Shown piece by piece: positions 3,019 to 11,255 of a DNA stretch of 15,833 bases; positions within the stretch are counted from its first letter, which is position 1, and the number at the start of each line of letters is the position of its first letter. Where the stretch lies: UHGV virus genome UHGV-0249966. One strand, written 5' to 3'. The notes beneath the pieces are model-generated. The model did not search any database. It was not told the DNA's origin and was given only the letters and a program-made list of their open reading frames with translations. A program made the position numbers and the translations under genes. Source of the DNA: a virus.

Positions 3019-3537
3019 TTACAGGCCGATATTGCGGCGGTGTTGCTCCAGCCGGTCGACGCCGTTCACCTTCTCAATCATGTTGATGGTGTCGATTTCG
3101 ACCAGCTCCTTACCGTCCATCGTCAGCCGGAAATAGGTGCAGACCACGGAGATTTTCGACTCGGTGTCTTCTCCCTGTTTACCCTCGCCGGTGTCGATTT
3201 CTTTCTGACGTCCACGCATGACCACCTCGACGGCCACCGTTTCGCCGGTATCGTCGCGCTGGTAAGAGCCTGCAAAACGAATCGGCACAGCATCCACACC
3301 GGTTGCGGCGTAAAGCTCCCAGATAACCGAATCCGGGAAGCCCCCGAGCGACCACTCCATTGACAGCGCATCGTCATCAAGGCCGAGGTCTACCGGTGCG
3401 CTGCCGTTCATCCCCGCACCGCGATAGTTTTCGAGCTTACGGGTCAGTTTTGGCAGCGTGACGGACTTTGCAACGCCCTGATAGCTGTAGCCGTTCAGAA
3501 AGACGTTCATTAACTTGAGTTTGCGCGGCATTGCCAT
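3019..3537 (-). CDS. FII: Major tail tube protein gpFII
   Basis: 172-aa ORF directly after the sheath gene; size and order as in P2. Confidence 0.92.
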   Translation of the reverse strand: MAMPRKLKLMNVFLNGYSYQGVAKSVTLPKLTRKLENYRGAGMNGSAPVDLGLDDDALSMEWSLGGFPDSVIWELYAATGVDAVPIRFAGSYQRDDTGETVAVEVVMRGRQKEIDTGEGKQGEDTESKISVVCTYFRLTMDGKELVEIDTINMIEKVNGVDRLEQHRRNIGL

Positions 3538-3549
3538 CGGTCAGGCTCC

Positions 3550-4740
3550 TTAATTGCTGTTAACCGAAGTGACCAGATTTGCCAGGTATTTATCGGTAAT
3601 ACGCTGGCGCAGGGTCAGGTTTTCGAGAGGAGGCACCGGGGTATAGTCGTAGTCGATATACAGTTTTCCGGCCTTGAGGGTTTCCGCATCGTTGGATTCT
3701 TCGCTGAACCAGCAGGTCGCATCCACGATATAGCCGTTTGTTTTCAGCTCACGGAATTTGGCATTGATGCCGTCAACGATGTCGCGAATCAGCGTTGCGG
3801 TGATGGGCTTGTCCACCGCCCACATGTGCGCCTCAGCCATCGTGTCGGCCAGCACCTGCGCGGTGCGGGTGTAGTTTTCAAAGAGGAACAGCGGGTCATC
3901 AGAGCAGGTACGGTTACCCCAGAAGCGGAAACCGTCACGGCGAATCAGCGTTGTGACGCCTGACTCGTTAAGCAGGTCAGCATCGGTGCCGGACTCCTGC
4001 AAATCCCAGAATACAGAGGCGCTGATGCCGGTAACACCGTTCACCCCAACGTTGGACAGCGTTTTATGCCAGCCCTGCTCCTGGTCGATTTTAGCGCGCA
4101 GACCCAGCGCACGGGCGGTGGCATACGCGGTGGCGGTGGTACTGGTGACCGTATCCCATGCGAGGAAATCCGGCCAGATGACCATCAGCTCACGCTGGCT
4201 GAAATTCTGACGGTAGGCTTTCACCTCGGAAATGGTTTTACAGCCCCATGCGCTGATATACCCGAAAGCGCGCAGCTTCTGACAGACGGATGCCAGTGCA
4301 ACAGCCACCTCTTTGGTATCCAGTCCCGGCACACCGAGAATACGCGGTTTAACACCGGTTACCGACTCCGCCGCCAGCAGGGCTTTTAGTCCGGTGTACT
4401 GACCGTTTTCGTCGGTGGTGCCGATGATATTGGAAACGGTCTGCGCGAGTTTCGTTTCCTCGTCGTCGCCGGTGCCGTCTTCCACACGCACGACAACGGT
4501 GACCGGTTTTGACTGGTCAGCGATGGCCTGCAACGATGCCGCCAGCGTGCCTTTTTTACCGGCCTTTGCAATTGCGCTCTGCACATTGGTAATCAGCACC
4601 GGTTTATTGAGGGGGAAGGTTTCCGCATCCGCATCGCTGGCCGTGCAGACCATGCCGACAATGGCCGTGGATACGGTGGAAATGACACGGGTGCCGTCGT
4701 TAATCTCCAGCACCTGCACGCCGTGATGATAGTCTCTCAT
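3550..4740 (-). CDS. FI: Tail sheath protein gpFI
   Basis: 396-aa ORF (MRDYHHGVQVLEINDGTRVISTVSTAIVGMVCTASDADAETFPLNKPVLITNVQSAI...), same length as P2 gpFI and recognisably the contractile sheath N-terminus. Confidence 0.95.
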   Translation of the reverse strand: MRDYHHGVQVLEINDGTRVISTVSTAIVGMVCTASDADAETFPLNKPVLITNVQSAIAKAGKKGTLAASLQAIADQSKPVTVVVRVEDGTGDDEETKLAQTVSNIIGTTDENGQYTGLKALLAAESVTGVKPRILGVPGLDTKEVAVALASVCQKLRAFGYISAWGCKTISEVKAYRQNFSQRELMVIWPDFLAWDTVTSTTATAYATARALGLRAKIDQEQGWHKTLSNVGVNGVTGISASVFWDLQESGTDADLLNESGVTTLIRRDGFRFWGNRTCSDDPLFLFENYTRTAQVLADTMAEAHMWAVDKPITATLIRDIVDGINAKFRELKTNGYIVDATCWFSEESNDAETLKAGKLYIDYDYTPVPPLENLTLRQRITDKYLANLVTSVNSN

Positions 4741-4835
4741 CCGTTTAACTCCGTGGTTAATGGGTGCAACTATTTTCTGTTGTGCAGAGCATGAGACGCT
4801 ATTTGACCTGGCTGGTCAGGGGATGAAACAACAGA

Positions 4836-4859
4836 CAAAGAAAAGGCGGGTAATCCGCC
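4836..4859 (-). terminator. Candidate intrinsic terminator after the 278-aa accessory gene
   Basis: On the minus strand: GGCGG-ATTAC-CCGCC (5-bp all-GC stem, 4845-4859) followed immediately by TTTTCTTTG (4844-4836). It lies between the stop of ORF 4984-5820 and the FI start. Confidence 0.45.
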
Positions 4860-4983
4860 AGCCTGCCATGATTTGCACTCACTCATTTTCCAACTGACAA
4901 TTTACATAGCCCAAACGCTATCAAATCTGACAGTCTGCTTTGAGCGAAATGCGGACATGCGGGAGCATGGTTTATGTATGAAA

Positions 4984-5820
4984 CTAATGATGATAAATAC
5001 CATCGTCTAAAGGGGGACCTTCAGCCGTAACCCCCGTGATACTACTTGGCGGTTCAAAGATGGCCCGACCAAATATTGCATCAAACTCTGCTTTTGTGAC
5101 TGATAAGTATTGCAAGATGAGCTCTAGCAGCTCTCTGTACGTATCACAATGCCATTCAATGTGAGGACATATTCGGGAGAGAACTCTGTTCTTAAAATCA
5201 TCCAGATTATTTGGGACTTCCAGCAAGTTACCAGTGTTTAATGCTTTCGACATAAACTTGTAATTGAGCATAGAGAGAACCACTACTGATACACCTTTCT
5301 CTTGCCTTAACTGATCGAACTTCTCTTGTGCTTGAAGGCTTAGCTTGGCGTATTCGCGATCTCGTTTAGAGTTGATTGGTTCGACGTACTGAAGCGGTTC
5401 GTCTGCAGCATCACCGATACGTGGACAAAAGTATCTATTCCACCAAGCCTCAAAATACCTTTTTTGGAACTCAAGGTATGTCATCCCAATAATATTGGTG
5501 TTTTGAGTGTACTGTTTAGCACCCTGCTGAAGCCCGTGCTTTGAAATAATAAATCCAATATTAGCCCCGGTTTCATGCATTACCGTGGTGAACGAATGGA
5601 CCACCGTCTGTGGTATAGAACTACCCCAGTTTTTGCATTCCACAATGTATCTGATTTTGTCCACGCTCCTAACATCTGTAGCAAGAACATCCACATTCAC
5701 CGAGCCACGCGGGGTTTCTAAATCGACCTCGACTTCTGCAAACAAGCCAACATTACGGAATATACGTTGGACCCCTGTCTGGAGGTCTTGCCAGTTTTCT
5801 GGTAGTGGGTCATCGATCAC
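4984..5820 (-). CDS. Accessory protein with N-terminal PD-(D/E)xK (Mrr/restriction-endonuclease-like) nuclease core and an unassigned C-terminal region; candidate defence nuclease
   Basis: 278-aa ORF. Motif ...VNVDVLATDV...IRYIVECKNW... (D44, E61-x-K63) fits the D...(D/E)xK pattern of the restriction endonuclease fold. Start is GTG at 5820 (in-frame TAG at 5839-5841 prevents extension), with AGGA 9 nt upstream. GC looks intermediate, lower than the phage genes. Not part of the canonical P2 late operon. Confidence 0.6.
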   Translation of the reverse strand: MIDDPLPENWQDLQTGVQRIFRNVGLFAEVEVDLETPRGSVNVDVLATDVRSVDKIRYIVECKNWGSSIPQTVVHSFTTVMHETGANIGFIISKHGLQQGAKQYTQNTNIIGMTYLEFQKRYFEAWWNRYFCPRIGDAADEPLQYVEPINSKRDREYAKLSLQAQEKFDQLRQEKGVSVVVLSMLNYKFMSKALNTGNLLEVPNNLDDFKNRVLSRICPHIEWHCDTYRELLELILQYLSVTKAEFDAIFGRAIFEPPSSITGVTAEGPPLDDGIYHH

Positions 5821-5940
5821 TTCTGCTTTTCCTATGCACTATCCGCATGCTTTTAAGACTACTTGAAGACACAAACGTCGTCATCCACTAAAAGGTTCAA
5901 ATTTGAGATAAAAGTTCGTTTCTGGTACGAAGCGGATCGT

Positions 5941-6104
5941 TTGAAGAACCGTGTGATCTGCTAAGAGCGAGGAGTGGACGTTCTCAAGGGATTGCTTACA
6001 TCGAGGATGTATGAATCAACGGGGTGCAGGTCACAATATATGCTATCACTTGGTTGTTGAAACGAATGCCAAAGCCTGTGACGAGCGAGGAGTAGACTTT
6101 GGCA
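5941..6104. repeat. Two copies of a 15-nt motif GAGCGAGGAGT(G/A)GAC, each within an imperfect hairpin, in the inter-ORF spacer
   Basis: Copy 1 at 5965-5979 (gagcgaggagtggac) lies in the loop of hairpin 5941-5987 (5-bp stem, one bulge, 3 more bp). Copy 2 at 6083-6097 (gagcgaggagtagac) lies in hairpin 6067-6104 (perfect 8-bp stem tgccaaag/ctttggca, last motif base in the stem). Both are preceded by TGTGA; direct orientation, 118 bp apart. Confidence 0.6.
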
Positions 6105-6114
6105 CAAAAAAAAT

Positions 6115-7068
6115 TTAAGTGTCCGATGACTTTGTTTCAGCCGCTTTATCCTCAACCAATACCCAATCTCCGGAGCTAACCTTTGTCATAAGACAAAATG
6201 GAAAGTTGTTAAAAAAATGTTCAATATCACTTGAGGGTATTTTCTCAATTTTATTTAAACAACCATCAGCTATTTGTAGGGAAATCATTTCTCTTGTAAT
6301 TTTCATAAATTGATCAACATCAGATAACAACCATGTTTCATGATGAGCACCAAACAATTTGTGCGGTATATCATCAAGAATAAGATTGTCTAAATCATGT
6401 GATTTATCTTTGTTTAGCTCAAGAAGTACAAAATCAAAAAAATCAAAAAGATATGAATAGAGAAGATGAGTATAAAAGGTAAAATAGTAATCAGCAAAAT
6501 TAATATTGTTATTGAATCTATTTGAATACATCATATGAGGTTGAATCAGATCGTTTAGATCAGAGTCATATGCTTGGAAACAAATCTTTGTTTTAATATT
6601 ATCATCGTTGACATAATAAGGATTTACTGTTATCCCTCCATGAACTATCTTATTTCTTATTTTATTAAAGTCCTTATACCATTTTAAATTCAAATCTGGA
6701 AATTCCTGTGCATATTGCTGGAAATGATTTTCAAGGTAATCATATTTGTTGCCATTTTTTTTAGTTGGAAAAATTAATTTATCAGCTATCTGATATGCAA
6801 TATCCCATATCGTGCTGATTTTATAATAGCAATACTCAATAGCACTAATGCTGACAATTGATGTTGCATCATGTTTTCTGATGAACTCAGCATCTTTTTG
6901 AATTTTATTAATGTAAGTAATCATATAAAACAGTTTCTTGAAATGAGTTTTTAAATTTTTTAAAAGAAACTGAAGTTTTATGTCTTCCAGTGTATCTTCT
7001 TCATACTTATTTAAGTACATAATAATTTTATAAAGTGGACTGCCAACTCTTTTTGCATGTACATCCAT
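6115..7068 (-). CDS. AT-rich accessory protein with R-x4-H (HEPN-like) motif; candidate abortive-infection / RNase-type defence protein occupying the P2 Z/fun position
   Basis: 317-aa ORF with strongly AT-rich codon usage, unlike the flanking phage genes. ATG at 7068 preceded by GGAG (GGAGTAAATA-ATG). Motif KIRNKIVHGG = R138-N-K-I-V-H143, encoded at 6640-6657, matches the HEPN R-x4-6-H signature (R-N-x3-H as in many Abi-type HEPN proteins). Assignment rests on the motif alone. Confidence 0.55.
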   Translation of the reverse strand: MDVHAKRVGSPLYKIIMYLNKYEEDTLEDIKLQFLLKNLKTHFKKLFYMITYINKIQKDAEFIRKHDATSIVSISAIEYCYYKISTIWDIAYQIADKLIFPTKKNGNKYDYLENHFQQYAQEFPDLNLKWYKDFNKIRNKIVHGGITVNPYYVNDDNIKTKICFQAYDSDLNDLIQPHMMYSNRFNNNINFADYYFTFYTHLLYSYLFDFFDFVLLELNKDKSHDLDNLILDDIPHKLFGAHHETWLLSDVDQFMKITREMISLQIADGCLNKIEKIPSSDIEHFFNNFPFCLMTKVSSGDWVLVEDKAAETKSSDT

Positions 7069-7108
7069 TATTTACTCCAATAAATTAATGCGAACATTTT
7101 AATTGAAA

Positions 7109-7137
7109 ATTTAATGCCAAAAACTTTAGTTAGTCAA
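7109..7137 (-). promoter_or_regulatory. Candidate sigma70-type promoter for the accessory cassette
   Basis: Minus strand TTGACT (7137-7132), 17-nt spacer, TTAAAT (7114-7109), about 40 nt upstream of the ATG at 7068, in an AT-rich 168-bp intergenic region after G. Confidence 0.35.
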
Positions 7138-7236
7138 TAATTTATTCAAACGTCCGCTACTGGCACAGAACGGACTGTCAGATTAGGCTTTACTCTGTGC
7201 CATAGATATGTAAGCTCACACCAGAGCTCATACAAC

Positions 7237-7764
7237 TTATTGCGGCATTTCCGGCCATTCAGGATTTGCAGGATCCACACGACTGACCAGAACACTATAG
7301 CGTTCCCATGCCTCCAGTCGACTACGCTCCTCATCTGTTGCCATATTCAGCCTGACCGCGCGCTCCAGCGGCAAAATCACGGATTCAGCTTCGGAAAGCA
7401 AAGCTGCCTTATGTAATTCCGCCAGTTGCTGCTGTTCGTCTGCCGTATAAATCCGCTTAATCACGGCACCATCCTTAAACATCCATTTACCAGAGTCATC
7501 AGCACGCCGGTTGGCAGTAATATCAGGAACCTCAACGACGCTAAAACCTTCAGGATTAAGCGTTGAAGCATCTCTGGTGATGGCGACAATAATATTATTT
7601 TCATCGTAAACAATCTTTATTGTGTCTTCCTGAAAATTACTTACTTCTTCATACCAGTTTTTTCCGTCTTCGGACCATAACCAGATAACATCAAAATTCT
7701 TTGTTAGCTGATATTGCTCTTTTGTTTTTGGATTACCTGACTTAATGTTCTTTAAATGCTGCAT
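7237..7764 (-). CDS. G: Tail fiber assembly chaperone gpG
   Basis: 175-aa ORF directly after the tail fiber gene, same length and position as P2 gpG. Confidence 0.88.
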
Positions 7765-7767
7765 AAT

Positions 7768-9813
7768 TTACACCTGCGCAACGTTATACCATGTGCCATT
7801 GATGTATTTTTGTATTGGTCTGAATACTGCCGGATCATCACCATCGACTTCACCGACAATACCAAGCCCGGTAATTACGTGCCCTGCTTTCTCATACATC
7901 ACGCCTTTCTGCATGGTCTGCACAACACGTGTACCAAGTCTGATATCTCTCACATAGCGGGAATCAAAGTTACCGTAATCCGAGGGATTAACACGCCCCG
8001 TAATATTTATGGTCTTATTACTTTGAATGCTTCCGGAAACAAAGCGCATAACATGGACGTTATTAGCATAAACATCCAGATTACCATCGCCATTTTGTTT
8101 AAATCCGGTGTCGTTATCACCAAGAACAATAGAGTTCCCACCCAACGCGTTATTCGTGCCAAGTGCCAGCCCGCCATCAATCCTGGCACCATTACCAACA
8201 GACACAACTCCTGTTCTTAAGTTGATGCCGAATGGCCTTAATGGCCCAATATCTCCATTTTCACCCTCATTTTCTCGTGTAGGAATGATATACAGGTTTT
8301 CTTCAGAACGGCGAAAAATAGCCCCAAAAGATGAATTAAATATCCTCAGTGCATTGACTGTAGATATTTTTACTTCACTGCTGAAAAGGGCTTTAACAAG
8401 AACATACAGAGCATCCCATTTAAGATTCATCAGGTCTTTTGTTGTGGTGCTCTGGCGACTTCTCCATTTGAAATATTCATTGCCGTTGTCACCTGTTTCA
8501 AACCACATATATGAATCAGTATCGCTGTCGGCATCATTTTTAAATCCAATCTTTGCCCAGTCAGTATTTCGAATCCAGGCAAGGATTGAGTCGTTTTCAA
8601 AAGTAAGCCCACCGGACAAGGTATCGCCATTCTTTTGCACCGCGTTCCTGGCCCTGTTTACCGTTTCCTGCAAACCGAGGTATTCGATAACGGCAGTAAC
8701 GGTCGCTTTAGCCAGAATATCCCGTCCGACTTTTGTCAGGGTTGCCAGGCTGGCAACATCATTCCCCGTAAAATACGGAAACCTGTCTGCCGCAGTAGCA
8801 AGCCCCGCCAGCGCCGTCAAAGTGGCATCTTTCGGTTGCTTACCCGCAAGCGCATTAGTCATGGTGGTAGCAAAATTCGGGTCATTGCCCAGCGCCGCCG
8901 CCAGCTCGTTCAGCGTATTCAGTGCGTCAGGCGACGAGTCTACAAGGGCGGCAATCGCGGCCATAACGAAAGCCGTGTTTGCGATCTGAGTATTATTCGT
9001 TCCCTGTCGCGCAGTTGGCGTCGTTGGCGTTCCGGTCAGTGCAGGGCTGTTTAATGGCGCTTTCTTGTTCGTTTCATCCATTACCGTCTTAACGGCTTTT
9101 GGTGTTGCGGCGAGCGTCTCAGACATGCTGTTGGTCGCACTACTTAGCTGGACAAGACCTTTTCGCGCTGTGGTAGCGTCCTGTGCGGTATATTTCCCGT
9201 TAGCAAGGTCATATGCGGCCTTAACCGCTTTCGGCGTTGCGGCCAGTGTTTCAGACGTGCTGTTGGTCGCATTGCTTAACTGAGTAAAACCTTTTGCGGT
9301 CAGCGAGGCGTCCGGGTGACGTCGTGACTGTTCATGCTCTGCAATTTTGTCATCAACGTAATCCTGCGTCGCCATCACCGTTGTGGTGTCAATGGTCAGC
9401 TCCACTGAGGCCACACTGCTGACGATGATGACCATGCGGCAGGTCTGCGAACGCCCTGAGCCTTCGGCAAGGGTAGGTTTATAACTTTCGGCCATGTTCG
9501 CCACGGCAATTAACGTTCCCGCATCATCGTACAGGCCAAGCTCTCGCATCCAGAAACCGCCCACCTCCGGCGGAATAACCAGCTCTGCGATAATATAATT
9601 ACTGTTTCGTTTGTCCTGGCTGATTTTGTTCAGCGCATGTCGCCAGACTTCGTGGATAAGCCCGGTCTGTCCGGCATCCGGGACAGGCAATTTACCACCG
9701 CCATCCCCGACGGCCATCGTGGTAATGTTGACCTTCCGCCCTCCCGGCGCGGTTGCCGCTGCCAGCTTTGCTGCACCGGCAGTGGTGATAACGGTTTTGA
9801 ATTTTGTGCTCAT
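7768..9813 (-). CDS. H: Tail fiber protein gpH
   Basis: 681-aa ORF after baseplate gene I; conserved N-terminus MSTKFKTVITTAGAAKLAAAT...; internal duplicated motif ...SETLAATPKAVK... typical of phage tail fibers; Gly/Asn-rich C-terminal receptor-binding region. Slightly longer than the ~669 aa I recall for P2 gpH. Confidence 0.92.
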   Translation of the reverse strand: MSTKFKTVITTAGAAKLAAATAPGGRKVNITTMAVGDGGGKLPVPDAGQTGLIHEVWRHALNKISQDKRNSNYIIAELVIPPEVGGFWMRELGLYDDAGTLIAVANMAESYKPTLAEGSGRSQTCRMVIIVSSVASVELTIDTTTVMATQDYVDDKIAEHEQSRRHPDASLTAKGFTQLSNATNSTSETLAATPKAVKAAYDLANGKYTAQDATTARKGLVQLSSATNSMSETLAATPKAVKTVMDETNKKAPLNSPALTGTPTTPTARQGTNNTQIANTAFVMAAIAALVDSSPDALNTLNELAAALGNDPNFATTMTNALAGKQPKDATLTALAGLATAADRFPYFTGNDVASLATLTKVGRDILAKATVTAVIEYLGLQETVNRARNAVQKNGDTLSGGLTFENDSILAWIRNTDWAKIGFKNDADSDTDSYMWFETGDNGNEYFKWRSRQSTTTKDLMNLKWDALYVLVKALFSSEVKISTVNALRIFNSSFGAIFRRSEENLYIIPTRENEGENGDIGPLRPFGINLRTGVVSVGNGARIDGGLALGTNNALGGNSIVLGDNDTGFKQNGDGNLDVYANNVHVMRFVSGSIQSNKTINITGRVNPSDYGNFDSRYVRDIRLGTRVVQTMQKGVMYEKAGHVITGLGIVGEVDGDDPAVFRPIQKYINGTWYNVAQV
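9089..9317. repeat. Imperfect tandem direct repeat (period 132 bp, about 95 nt conserved per copy) inside H, encoding a duplicated 44-aa tail-fiber repeat
   Basis: Copy A from 9089 (cttaacggcttttggtgttgcggcgagcgtctcagacatgctgttggtcgc...) and copy B from 9221 (cttaaccgctttcggcgttgcggccagtgtttcagacgtgctgttggtcgc...). Protein level: QLSNATNSTSETLAATPKAVKAAYD / QLSSATNSMSETLAATPKAVKTVMD. Confidence 0.8.
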
Positions 9814-9823
9814 TATTCCTCAC

Positions 9824-10354
9824 TTATCCGGGGTAAACCGTAATTACATCGCCGTCATAAGCCACACCACCGGCGAACAGGTAGCCGGGAATGTCCCGGG
9901 TAATGTTCAGGCCAATAAGGTGGCGGCTTGCAGGTTTGGCATCAGCAATCAGCCGTTCCATTTCCTGATACATTGCCTCTGTGATACCGCTTTCCAGTAC
10001 ACCAATATCAAGCCGGAAGGTGCCTGGCGGGTCACTGTTTTCCCACCACTCCGTCACGTTAATGAGATAGCCGAGCGGCTCCACCACACGCCGGATTGCG
10101 CCGATAGTGCCTTTATGACAGTGGATGAAATAGGCATCGCGGATAACGGCACGTTTGGTCGCTTCCGGCCACTTTTCATCCCACCTGTCGACCGAAAACG
10201 CCCACGCCAGCCACGGCAGCAGATTTGCCGGGCAGGTGTCCGGGTTCCACAGTTCACGAATCCTGACCGGCGTTTTTTCAATTTCCGCACAGGCTTTTGC
10301 GGCGGCAACTTCAAGCGGTGATGAGCCGGTCGGCAGCAGTCGCGAATCACTCAT
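9824..10354 (-). CDS. I: Baseplate assembly protein gpI
   Basis: 176-aa ORF, same length and position as P2 gpI; its start overlaps the J stop by 8 nt. Confidence 0.9.
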   Translation of the reverse strand: MSDSRLLPTGSSPLEVAAAKACAEIEKTPVRIRELWNPDTCPANLLPWLAWAFSVDRWDEKWPEATKRAVIRDAYFIHCHKGTIGAIRRVVEPLGYLINVTEWWENSDPPGTFRLDIGVLESGITEAMYQEMERLIADAKPASRHLIGLNITRDIPGYLFAGGVAYDGDVITVYPG

Positions 10355-11255
10355 CCGAGCCTCCGGTCACGACGCGGTATTCAGTACAGAAAGACGCCTG
10401 CGTACTGTTGAGCACAATGTCGGCCAGTGGTGCGGCCAGCTCGACACGCTGCACGCCTTCCACATGCAAAGCGGCATAAATGGCAGACAGACGGATGTCG
10501 CGCCCCAGCCGGTGCTGTGCCGTGATATACGCTTCCAGCTTTTTCACAGCGGCAGCGCGAATGGGTTCGCTTTCGGGACCAGGGTAAAGGTAAAGCGTGG
10601 CGTTTATCTGATATTCAACGATGGCGGCAGACTGCACGGTCACGCGGTCGGCCACCGGCCTGACGTCCTCACCATTAAGGGCGTTACGCACCACAGCCAG
10701 CAGGTCTTCGGATGCGACGCCGTTATTTTCACGTGACAGCACAGAGATGGTGACACAGGCAGGAGACGGACTGGTGACAGAAATATCGGCGACACGCCCG
10801 TCAGCACTGCGACCATGATACTGATAGGCTCCCACTGACCCGGCGACGCTTAAGCCCTCAAAAGCCTGCTGAATACGCAGACGATAATCGGTGTCAGATT
10901 CCATCACTGCCGGTGTCGGCGGAATGGTCGAATCATCTGCCGGGGTGATAATCAGGCGCGTGGTGTTGTAATTGGCACCAATTACATCAAGGTCATTACC
11001 GGCAGCACAGGCCAGCATCACCGCCCGTGCGGCCTCATTCACACGCTGACGCCAGATAAGCTCACGATAAGCATTTTCCTCCAGCAGTTTGACGAGAGGC
11101 TCAGATTCCAGCGTCAGGGTACGGGCGACCGCCTCCTGCTGGTCTTCCGGGTAAAGGGAAATCAGTGTCGCCTTGCGTTCAGCGAGAATGGTTTCAAAGT
11201 CCAGCTCCTCGACCACATCCGGTGCGGGTAGCTGGTTCAGGTCGATAATCGGCAT
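10347..11255 (-). CDS. J: Baseplate assembly protein gpJ (baseplate wedge)
   Basis: 302-aa ORF, same length and position as P2 gpJ. Confidence 0.9.
   Translation of the reverse strand: MPIIDLNQLPAPDVVEELDFETILAERKATLISLYPEDQQEAVARTLTLESEPLVKLLEENAYRELIWRQRVNEAARAVMLACAAGNDLDVIGANYNTTRLIITPADDSTIPPTPAVMESDTDYRLRIQQAFEGLSVAGSVGAYQYHGRSADGRVADISVTSPSPACVTISVLSRENNGVASEDLLAVVRNALNGEDVRPVADRVTVQSAAIVEYQINATLYLYPGPESEPIRAAAVKKLEAYITAQHRLGRDIRLSAIYAALHVEGVQRVELAAPLADIVLNSTQASFCTEYRVVTGGSDE

Follow-up and report, generated by a model that had tools for sequence, protein, structure and literature searches.

The tail fibre genes considered here lie in a 15,833-nt stretch of the UHGV virus genome UHGV-0249966 (hereafter the window; all coordinates are positions in it). 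A list of its open reading frames (ORFs) together with Pfam scans shows that the window is the tail (late) part of a P2-like prophage and that every gene is on the minus strand; the genes in question are H, encoding the tail fibre protein, and G, encoding the tail fibre assembly protein, a chaperone. The gene order T, E, FII, FI, cargo, G, H, I, J, W, V, S, R is the one annotated in P2, Wphi, pro147 and P2_AC1, with W and V upstream. As in P2, H comes directly after the baseplate gene I and before G in the V-W-J-I-H-G late operon; the start of G is 3 nt past the stop codon of H, and the tail genes adjoining H are intact. An earlier note on this DNA had called H and G and placed the pair at 7237-9813: both gene calls are upheld by the Pfam domains and the P2 gene order, and the outer coordinates match the ends of the two ORFs exactly. 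We conclude that H and G, a fibre gene and a co-transcribed chaperone gene, almost certainly make up the usual module for host recognition in a P2-like (Peduovirus) E. coli prophage, here in the pro147 allele.

In megablast searches with 7100-9900, matches were found in 118 phage records, nearly all of Peduoviridae, and in 2230 of the 5426 complete E. coli genomes, 160 of which carry at least 80% of the 2.8-kb module. The closest known protein is the tail fibre ORF11 of phage pro147 (YP_009207632; NC_028896), identical to H at 681 of 681 residues, with only ten of 2046 nucleotides differing between the genes; pro147 has H in the same position, with the same HR1 and HR2 alleles. An IMG/VR contig also carries the identical N-terminal part (residues 1-400) and a 681-aa ORF. 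Phage pro147, obtained by induction of an E. coli strain, forms plaques on DE048, DH5alpha, BL21 and MC1061 (Chen et al. 2017, PMC5285337). The module is thus already known, down to an identical published protein; it is a textbook case, and neither H nor G needs a new explanation.

These comparisons also bear on whether H is a decayed or non-functional prophage remnant and not a working fibre gene. Close relatives in IMG/VR are truncated (519 aa in L012 and 487 aa in L045, both at 98% identity), and IS2 lies inside the H/G module of one complete E. coli genome (TW10573, hit H43). However, the H ORF is full length and identical to the fibre of a plaque-forming phage, all ten nucleotide differences from pro147 are synonymous, which points to purifying selection, and the neighbouring tail genes are intact, so decay of H is very unlikely. 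The two truncations and the IS2 insertion are in their own right examples of fibre-gene decay in resident prophages.

The features of the locus are collected in Table 1. The N-terminal domain of H is almost invariant in an alignment with P2, Wphi and pro147. It is followed by two 44-residue units recognized as the PF03406 "phage tail fibre repeat" (E=4.7e-40), and then by a shaft segment (residues 256-374), which is common to the P2-type fibres of P2, Wphi, pro147 and P88 and has no counterpart in Mu S or 186 K. The distal half contains a complete T4 gp34-type trimerisation domain (residues 419-529), the hypervariable tip and a conserved C-terminal end, inside which the HR2 segment falls and which aligns with the distal end of the Mu fibre protein S crystallised with its chaperone U (5YVQ). 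An NCBIfam search of H, G and the cargo ORFs gave no match. Plus-strand ORFs overlapping H (e.g. 8108-8989, 293 aa) were dismissed as shadow ORFs of a well-supported minus-strand gene, and an inverted repeat at 7526-7544 and 9015-9033 (84% complementary) is taken as chance, since its 19-nt arms lie within coding sequence, 1.5 kb from each other, and no other feature supports it.

Table 1. Genes and features of the tail fibre locus and its surroundings (aa, amino acid residues).
Feature	Position	Strand	Basis
H, tail fibre protein, 681 aa	7768-9813	minus	PF12571, two PF03406, PF21446
H aa 1-151, N-terminal tail-collar/baseplate attachment domain	9361-9813	minus	PF12571, E=2.6e-58, profile 1-150/150
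H aa 168-211, repeat unit 1 (conserved core 9220-9312)	9181-9312	minus	PF03406 at aa 170-210
H aa 212-255, repeat unit 2 (conserved core 9088-9180)	9049-9180	minus	second PF03406 stretch
H aa ~375-383 (VIEYLGLQE), relic Mu-type (gix-like) inversion crossover site	8665-8690	minus	23/26 match to Mu
H aa 375-477, block in common with the variable part of Mu S	8383-8691	minus	95/103 aa identical to Mu S 166-268
H aa 477-544, 68-aa block absent in P2 and Wphi gpH	8182-8385	minus	alignment; no P2 blastn match at 8182-8388
H aa 529-612, hypervariable tip, HR1 equivalent	7978-8229	minus	P88 residues 576-695, by pairwise alignment and PMC5285337
H aa 633-663, HR2 equivalent, pro147 allele	7825-7917	minus	P88 716-746, by alignment
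H aa 613-681, conserved C-terminal end (NFDSRYV...INGTWYNVAQV)	7771-7977	minus	common to P2 H, Mu S and P88
G, tail fibre assembly protein (chaperone), 175 aa	7237-7764	minus	PF02413 Caudo_TAP
Baseplate gene I	9824-10354	minus	PF09684
J	10347-11255	minus	ORF list and Pfam
Cargo ORF, 317 aa	6115-7068	minus	no match in Pfam, NCBIfam, PHROGs or PADLOC
Cargo ORF, 278 aa	4984-5820	minus	N-terminal Mrr_cat restriction-endonuclease domain, E=4e-11; weak PADLOC PDC-S02 match
Sheath FI	3550-4740	minus	ORF list and Pfam
Tube FII	3019-3537	minus	ORF list and Pfam
E	2687-2962	minus	ORF list and Pfam
Tape measure (T)	95-2542	minus	ORF list and Pfam

The tandem repeat of H is real. A repeat search found direct repeats at 9088-9163 and 9220-9295, 132 nt from start to start and 82% identical over 76 nt, and in an amino-acid offset scan residues 168-198 match residues 212-242 at an offset of 44, with 22 of 30 residues identical in the best window and the string SETLAATPKAV exactly preserved in both units. 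The best 76-nt self-match of the gene has 62 identities; 100 codon shuffles gave 38 on average and at most 43. Tandem Repeats Finder, run at a minimum score of 30, missed the 132-nt repeat because there are only two, diverged, copies. The imperfect duplication of 132-bp period that the earlier note had placed at 9089-9317 is therefore essentially right when set against the conserved cores, which are each 93 nt long and 74% identical to one another. Between the two copies the longest exact run is 14 nt, and in the 21 best-conserved codons eight differences are synonymous and two non-synonymous. With copies 74-82% identical, no exact run above 14 nt and mainly synonymous changes, the sequence argues for an old duplication that selection on the peptide has maintained and whose copies lend themselves poorly to unequal crossing-over of the RecA type.

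This bears directly on the possibility that a recent or unstable change in the number of 132-nt copies distinguishes H from P2 gpH and explains its extra length. Variation of this kind does exist in the family. Among 61 complete H homologues from IMG/VR there are one copy in nine, two in 25, three in 14, four in ten and five in three, always with a spacing of 44 residues, and the number varies even among homologues that are 96% identical to H in the first 251 residues; the fibre of P88 has one copy more than H, seen as an exact 44-residue gap in the alignment. However, P2 gpH has the same two PF03406 stretches as H, when H is aligned to P2, Wphi, pro147 and P2_AC1 no gap falls within residues 1-476, all five proteins having two repeat units, and 186 gene K aligns with residues 1-251 without gaps and also with two repeats. 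In addition, a unit of 44 residues cannot yield a difference of 12. A recent duplication was thus rejected, on the gapless alignment to the P2 relatives and the divergence of the copies, and is extremely improbable. On these comparisons repeat number does not set H apart from P2, Wphi and 186, which have two copies each. A change in it would be expected to alter the length of the shaft.

Turning to the family as a whole, at least 598 relatives were confirmed in an IMG/VR scan with residues 1-400 of H, and the survey covers the best 80 loci. In blastp comparisons homology to H stops in about 20 loci where the repeat array ends (residue 251), in about 25 beside the gix relic (residues ~383-406) and in a few at residues ~455-502. 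This tally leaves out the 669-aa P2-type loci L007, L010, L011 and L013, whose N-terminal high-scoring segment pair is absent from the table, and the comparison with P2 given below rests on alignments and blastn and not on the blastp breaks. The proposal of the earlier note that repeat number and the C-terminus are hot spots of recombination is thus supported family-wide, by the range of one to five copies and by the breaks at residue 251 and residues ~383-406. These hot spots hold for the family but do not single out the H locus. The interpretation given in that note is for the most part correct, with the caveat that nothing here ties repeat number to receptor specificity.

The real difference between H and P2 gpH (NC_001895) is located in the C-terminal third. 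The two fibres agree in operon position, N-terminal domain, both repeats, shaft, gix relic, Mu S-like block and conserved C-terminal end; they are 91% identical over aligned columns (about 97% in residues 1-476 of H), and both ends are colinear. H is 681 aa long and P2 gpH 669 aa, in agreement with the statement of the earlier note that H is about 12 aa longer. An end-to-end alignment free of indels, named there as the outcome that would speak against it, was looked for and is not the case. Compared with P2 and Wphi, H is without 6+12+38=56 residues in the tip and has a block of 68 residues (477-544) that is absent from both. The net difference of 12 residues is therefore due to this mosaic (+68 and -56 at residues 477-612), which accounts for all of it, and not to the repeat. 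P2 gpH further differs by about ten substitutions in HR2.

The 68-aa block is present in pro147, P2_AC1 and P88, almost unchanged in the last, and has a diverged counterpart in Mu S. It comprises the second half of the gp34-type domain: the profile PF21446 (T4 gp34-type trimerisation domain) is covered at positions 1-115 of 116 in H and at 1-57 in P2 gpH, so that with the block a half match to this domain becomes a full one. Residues 423-546 of the pro147 fibre were modelled on T4 gp34 (PMC5285337). At the DNA level the identity to P2 is 87-100% at 8400-9900, falls to 30-47% at 8000-8399 and is 63-73% at 7800-7999, and blastn against P2 gave no match for 8182-8388. In contrast, the identity to pro147 is 97-100% throughout H; across 8000-8299 the column identity is 30-33% to P2 and 99-100% to pro147. 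The internal mosaic at residues 477-612 is thus an allelic variant, found also in pro147 and P2_AC1. Homologous or illegitimate recombination replaced roughly residues 477-663, and this replacement is the sole source of the difference between H and P2 gpH.

The distal half of H, from residue 375, is homologous to Mu S. Residues 375-680 match Mu S (gp49; 5YVQ chain A) with E=2.6e-93 and align with its residues 166-503, the first 103 residues being 92% identical and the tip region, opposite residues 545-612 of H, poorly conserved; Mu S has one PF03406-type repeat and a differing short N-terminal part. The homology starts exactly at the 26-nt gix-like site. At 23 of 26 positions this site agrees with Mu where the left end of the G segment is annotated, a match found in none of 200 shuffles, and 186 gene K bears the annotation 'Mu-like inversion crossover site' at the corresponding position. 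In Mu the distal half of S lies on the invertible G segment, together with an alternative S'/U' pair and the Gin invertase.

One could therefore ask whether the module is one half of an invertible host-range switch of the Mu G-segment or P1 C-segment type, in which a DNA invertase flips fibre C-termini and chaperones. The position of the site at the start of the Mu S variable-part homology would fit such a switch, as would the related phage P88, which carries an inverted second fibre-end/chaperone pair and a DNA invertase downstream of H and G. However, no second gix-like copy with up to three mismatches was found in either orientation in the 15.8-kb window, and the ORF list and domain scans show neither an invertase nor an inverted alternative fibre/chaperone pair there; G is followed by two unrelated cargo ORFs and then FI. 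Moreover, P2 and 186 have the same relic without inversion. An invertible segment was rejected on these grounds, since partner site, invertase and alternative fibre are all missing from the window, and it has practically no likelihood. The site in H is for the same reasons (a single copy, no invertase and no inverted pair in the window) regarded as a relic.

The P88 fibre (NC_026014) is 70% identical to H overall and has the 68-aa block and the tip-proximal part in common with it; it differs in its three repeats, another N-terminal allele, a longer, Mu-like tip and an invertible segment that looks functional, together with an invertase. The corresponding P88 locus (L086, 22562-27564), in which H and Tfa are accompanied by Tfa' and a fibre C-terminus in inverted orientation and by the DNA invertase, gives a picture of the H locus as it would look were the relic active. 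In 186 gene K (NC_001317) the N-terminal domain and the two repeats (residues 1-251) are 82% identical to H and the crossover site is annotated; the shaft segment 256-374 is lacking, the distal half is essentially unrelated, and the protein is 462 aa in total.

There is a slim chance that the relic is still a live substrate for invertases acting in trans (e14 Pin, P1 Cin, Mu Gin or those of P88-like prophages), or that combining a pro147-type H with a mosaic, P2/Wphi-like G changes how the fibre is assembled or its range of receptors. If invertases did act in trans, distal halves of fibres and their chaperones could be swapped between prophages by site-specific and not homologous recombination. 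The sole observation that points to such exchange is the loss of homology to H near the relic, at residues ~383-406, in many relatives.

The assembly protein G belongs to the family PF02413 (Caudo_TAP, E=3.2e-34, residues 40-175, profile positions 2-131 of 131). Its residues 1-175 match residues 1-175 of Mu U (gp50; 5YVQ chain B) with E=1.1e-104 and 90% identity over the full length, and the structure of U was solved in complex with Mu S (PDB 5YVQ). The identity is 94% to P2 gpG and 91-94% to the alleles of Wphi, pro147 and P2_AC1. The conservation of the C-terminal end of H is consistent with that of G. At the DNA level G is a patchwork, locally 95-99% identical to P2 or Wphi (99% to P2 compared with 85% to pro147 at 7700-7799; 99% to Wphi at 7500-7599) and 84-90% identical to pro147 across 7200-7799. 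Since the DNA of H is almost that of pro147 throughout, whereas that of G is mosaic, the two genes have partly separate recombination histories.

Nothing contradicts the assignment of H and G to an ordinary pro147-type module, and three points set limits to it. First, G is not the pro147 allele: it is only 94% identical to the pro147 assembly protein ORF10 and has P2/Wphi-like patches. Second, a simple consensus scan of 6900-7400 found no terminator-like site just downstream of G; in P2 the terminator is annotated further downstream, beyond the P2 cargo gene. Third, a lipopolysaccharide (LPS) core receptor rests on P2, Mu and the rough hosts of pro147.

The domain architecture of the fibre, its homologies, its mosaic boundaries and its identity to the fibre of a plaque-forming phage are matters of observation, and for its working P2 and Mu serve as models. 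By analogy with these phages H would trimerise and dock with its N-terminus on the I/J baseplate wedge, while G would bind the distal end of H, drive correct trimeric folding and probably stay attached; the tip of H would then bind the LPS core of rough E. coli. In P2, adsorption to LPS is mediated by gpH and gpG is required for assembly (PMC9594776), and Mu Tfa remains bound at the fibre tip (PMC9608196, PMC10579305); further P2 and Mu literature behind this mechanism is found in PMC11915804. The receptor of H is probably the LPS core; this fits the laboratory strains that pro147 infects, which are rough derivatives of K-12 and B. Transfer of the pro147 HR2 into P88 conferred the pro147 host range, whereas transplantation of HR1 caused no change of host range (PMC5285337).

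Between G and FI lies the slot known in P2 as Z/fun, a hotspot of accessory and defence genes (PMC13586616). In pro147 the cargo downstream of G is a protein with a metal-binding domain, whereas the window has in its place the 317-aa ORF and the Mrr_cat protein. Only eight of the 5426 complete E. coli genomes contain 80% or more of the 2.5-kb cassette (query 4741-7236), with an identity of 99% or higher, and the copies there are annotated 'hypothetical protein' and 'restriction endonuclease'. The two-gene cassette at 4984-7068 is a candidate for an uncharacterised anti-phage system. In the scan of 6900-7400 six sigma-70-like promoter matches, compared with 1.4 expected, fall in the AT-rich spacer that separates G from the cargo ORF, and judging from these matches the cargo may have its own promoter.

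Overall, the window is a P2-like prophage with a pro147-type fibre allele, and the significance of this finding is very small; it also serves as a tidy illustration of the modular construction already known for these fibres. Its practical use is limited to a map of natural chimera junctions for fibre engineering, with boundaries at residues 251, ~380 and ~476, and further work would more probably be rewarded on the cargo cassette than on H and G. [quoted passage not shown]

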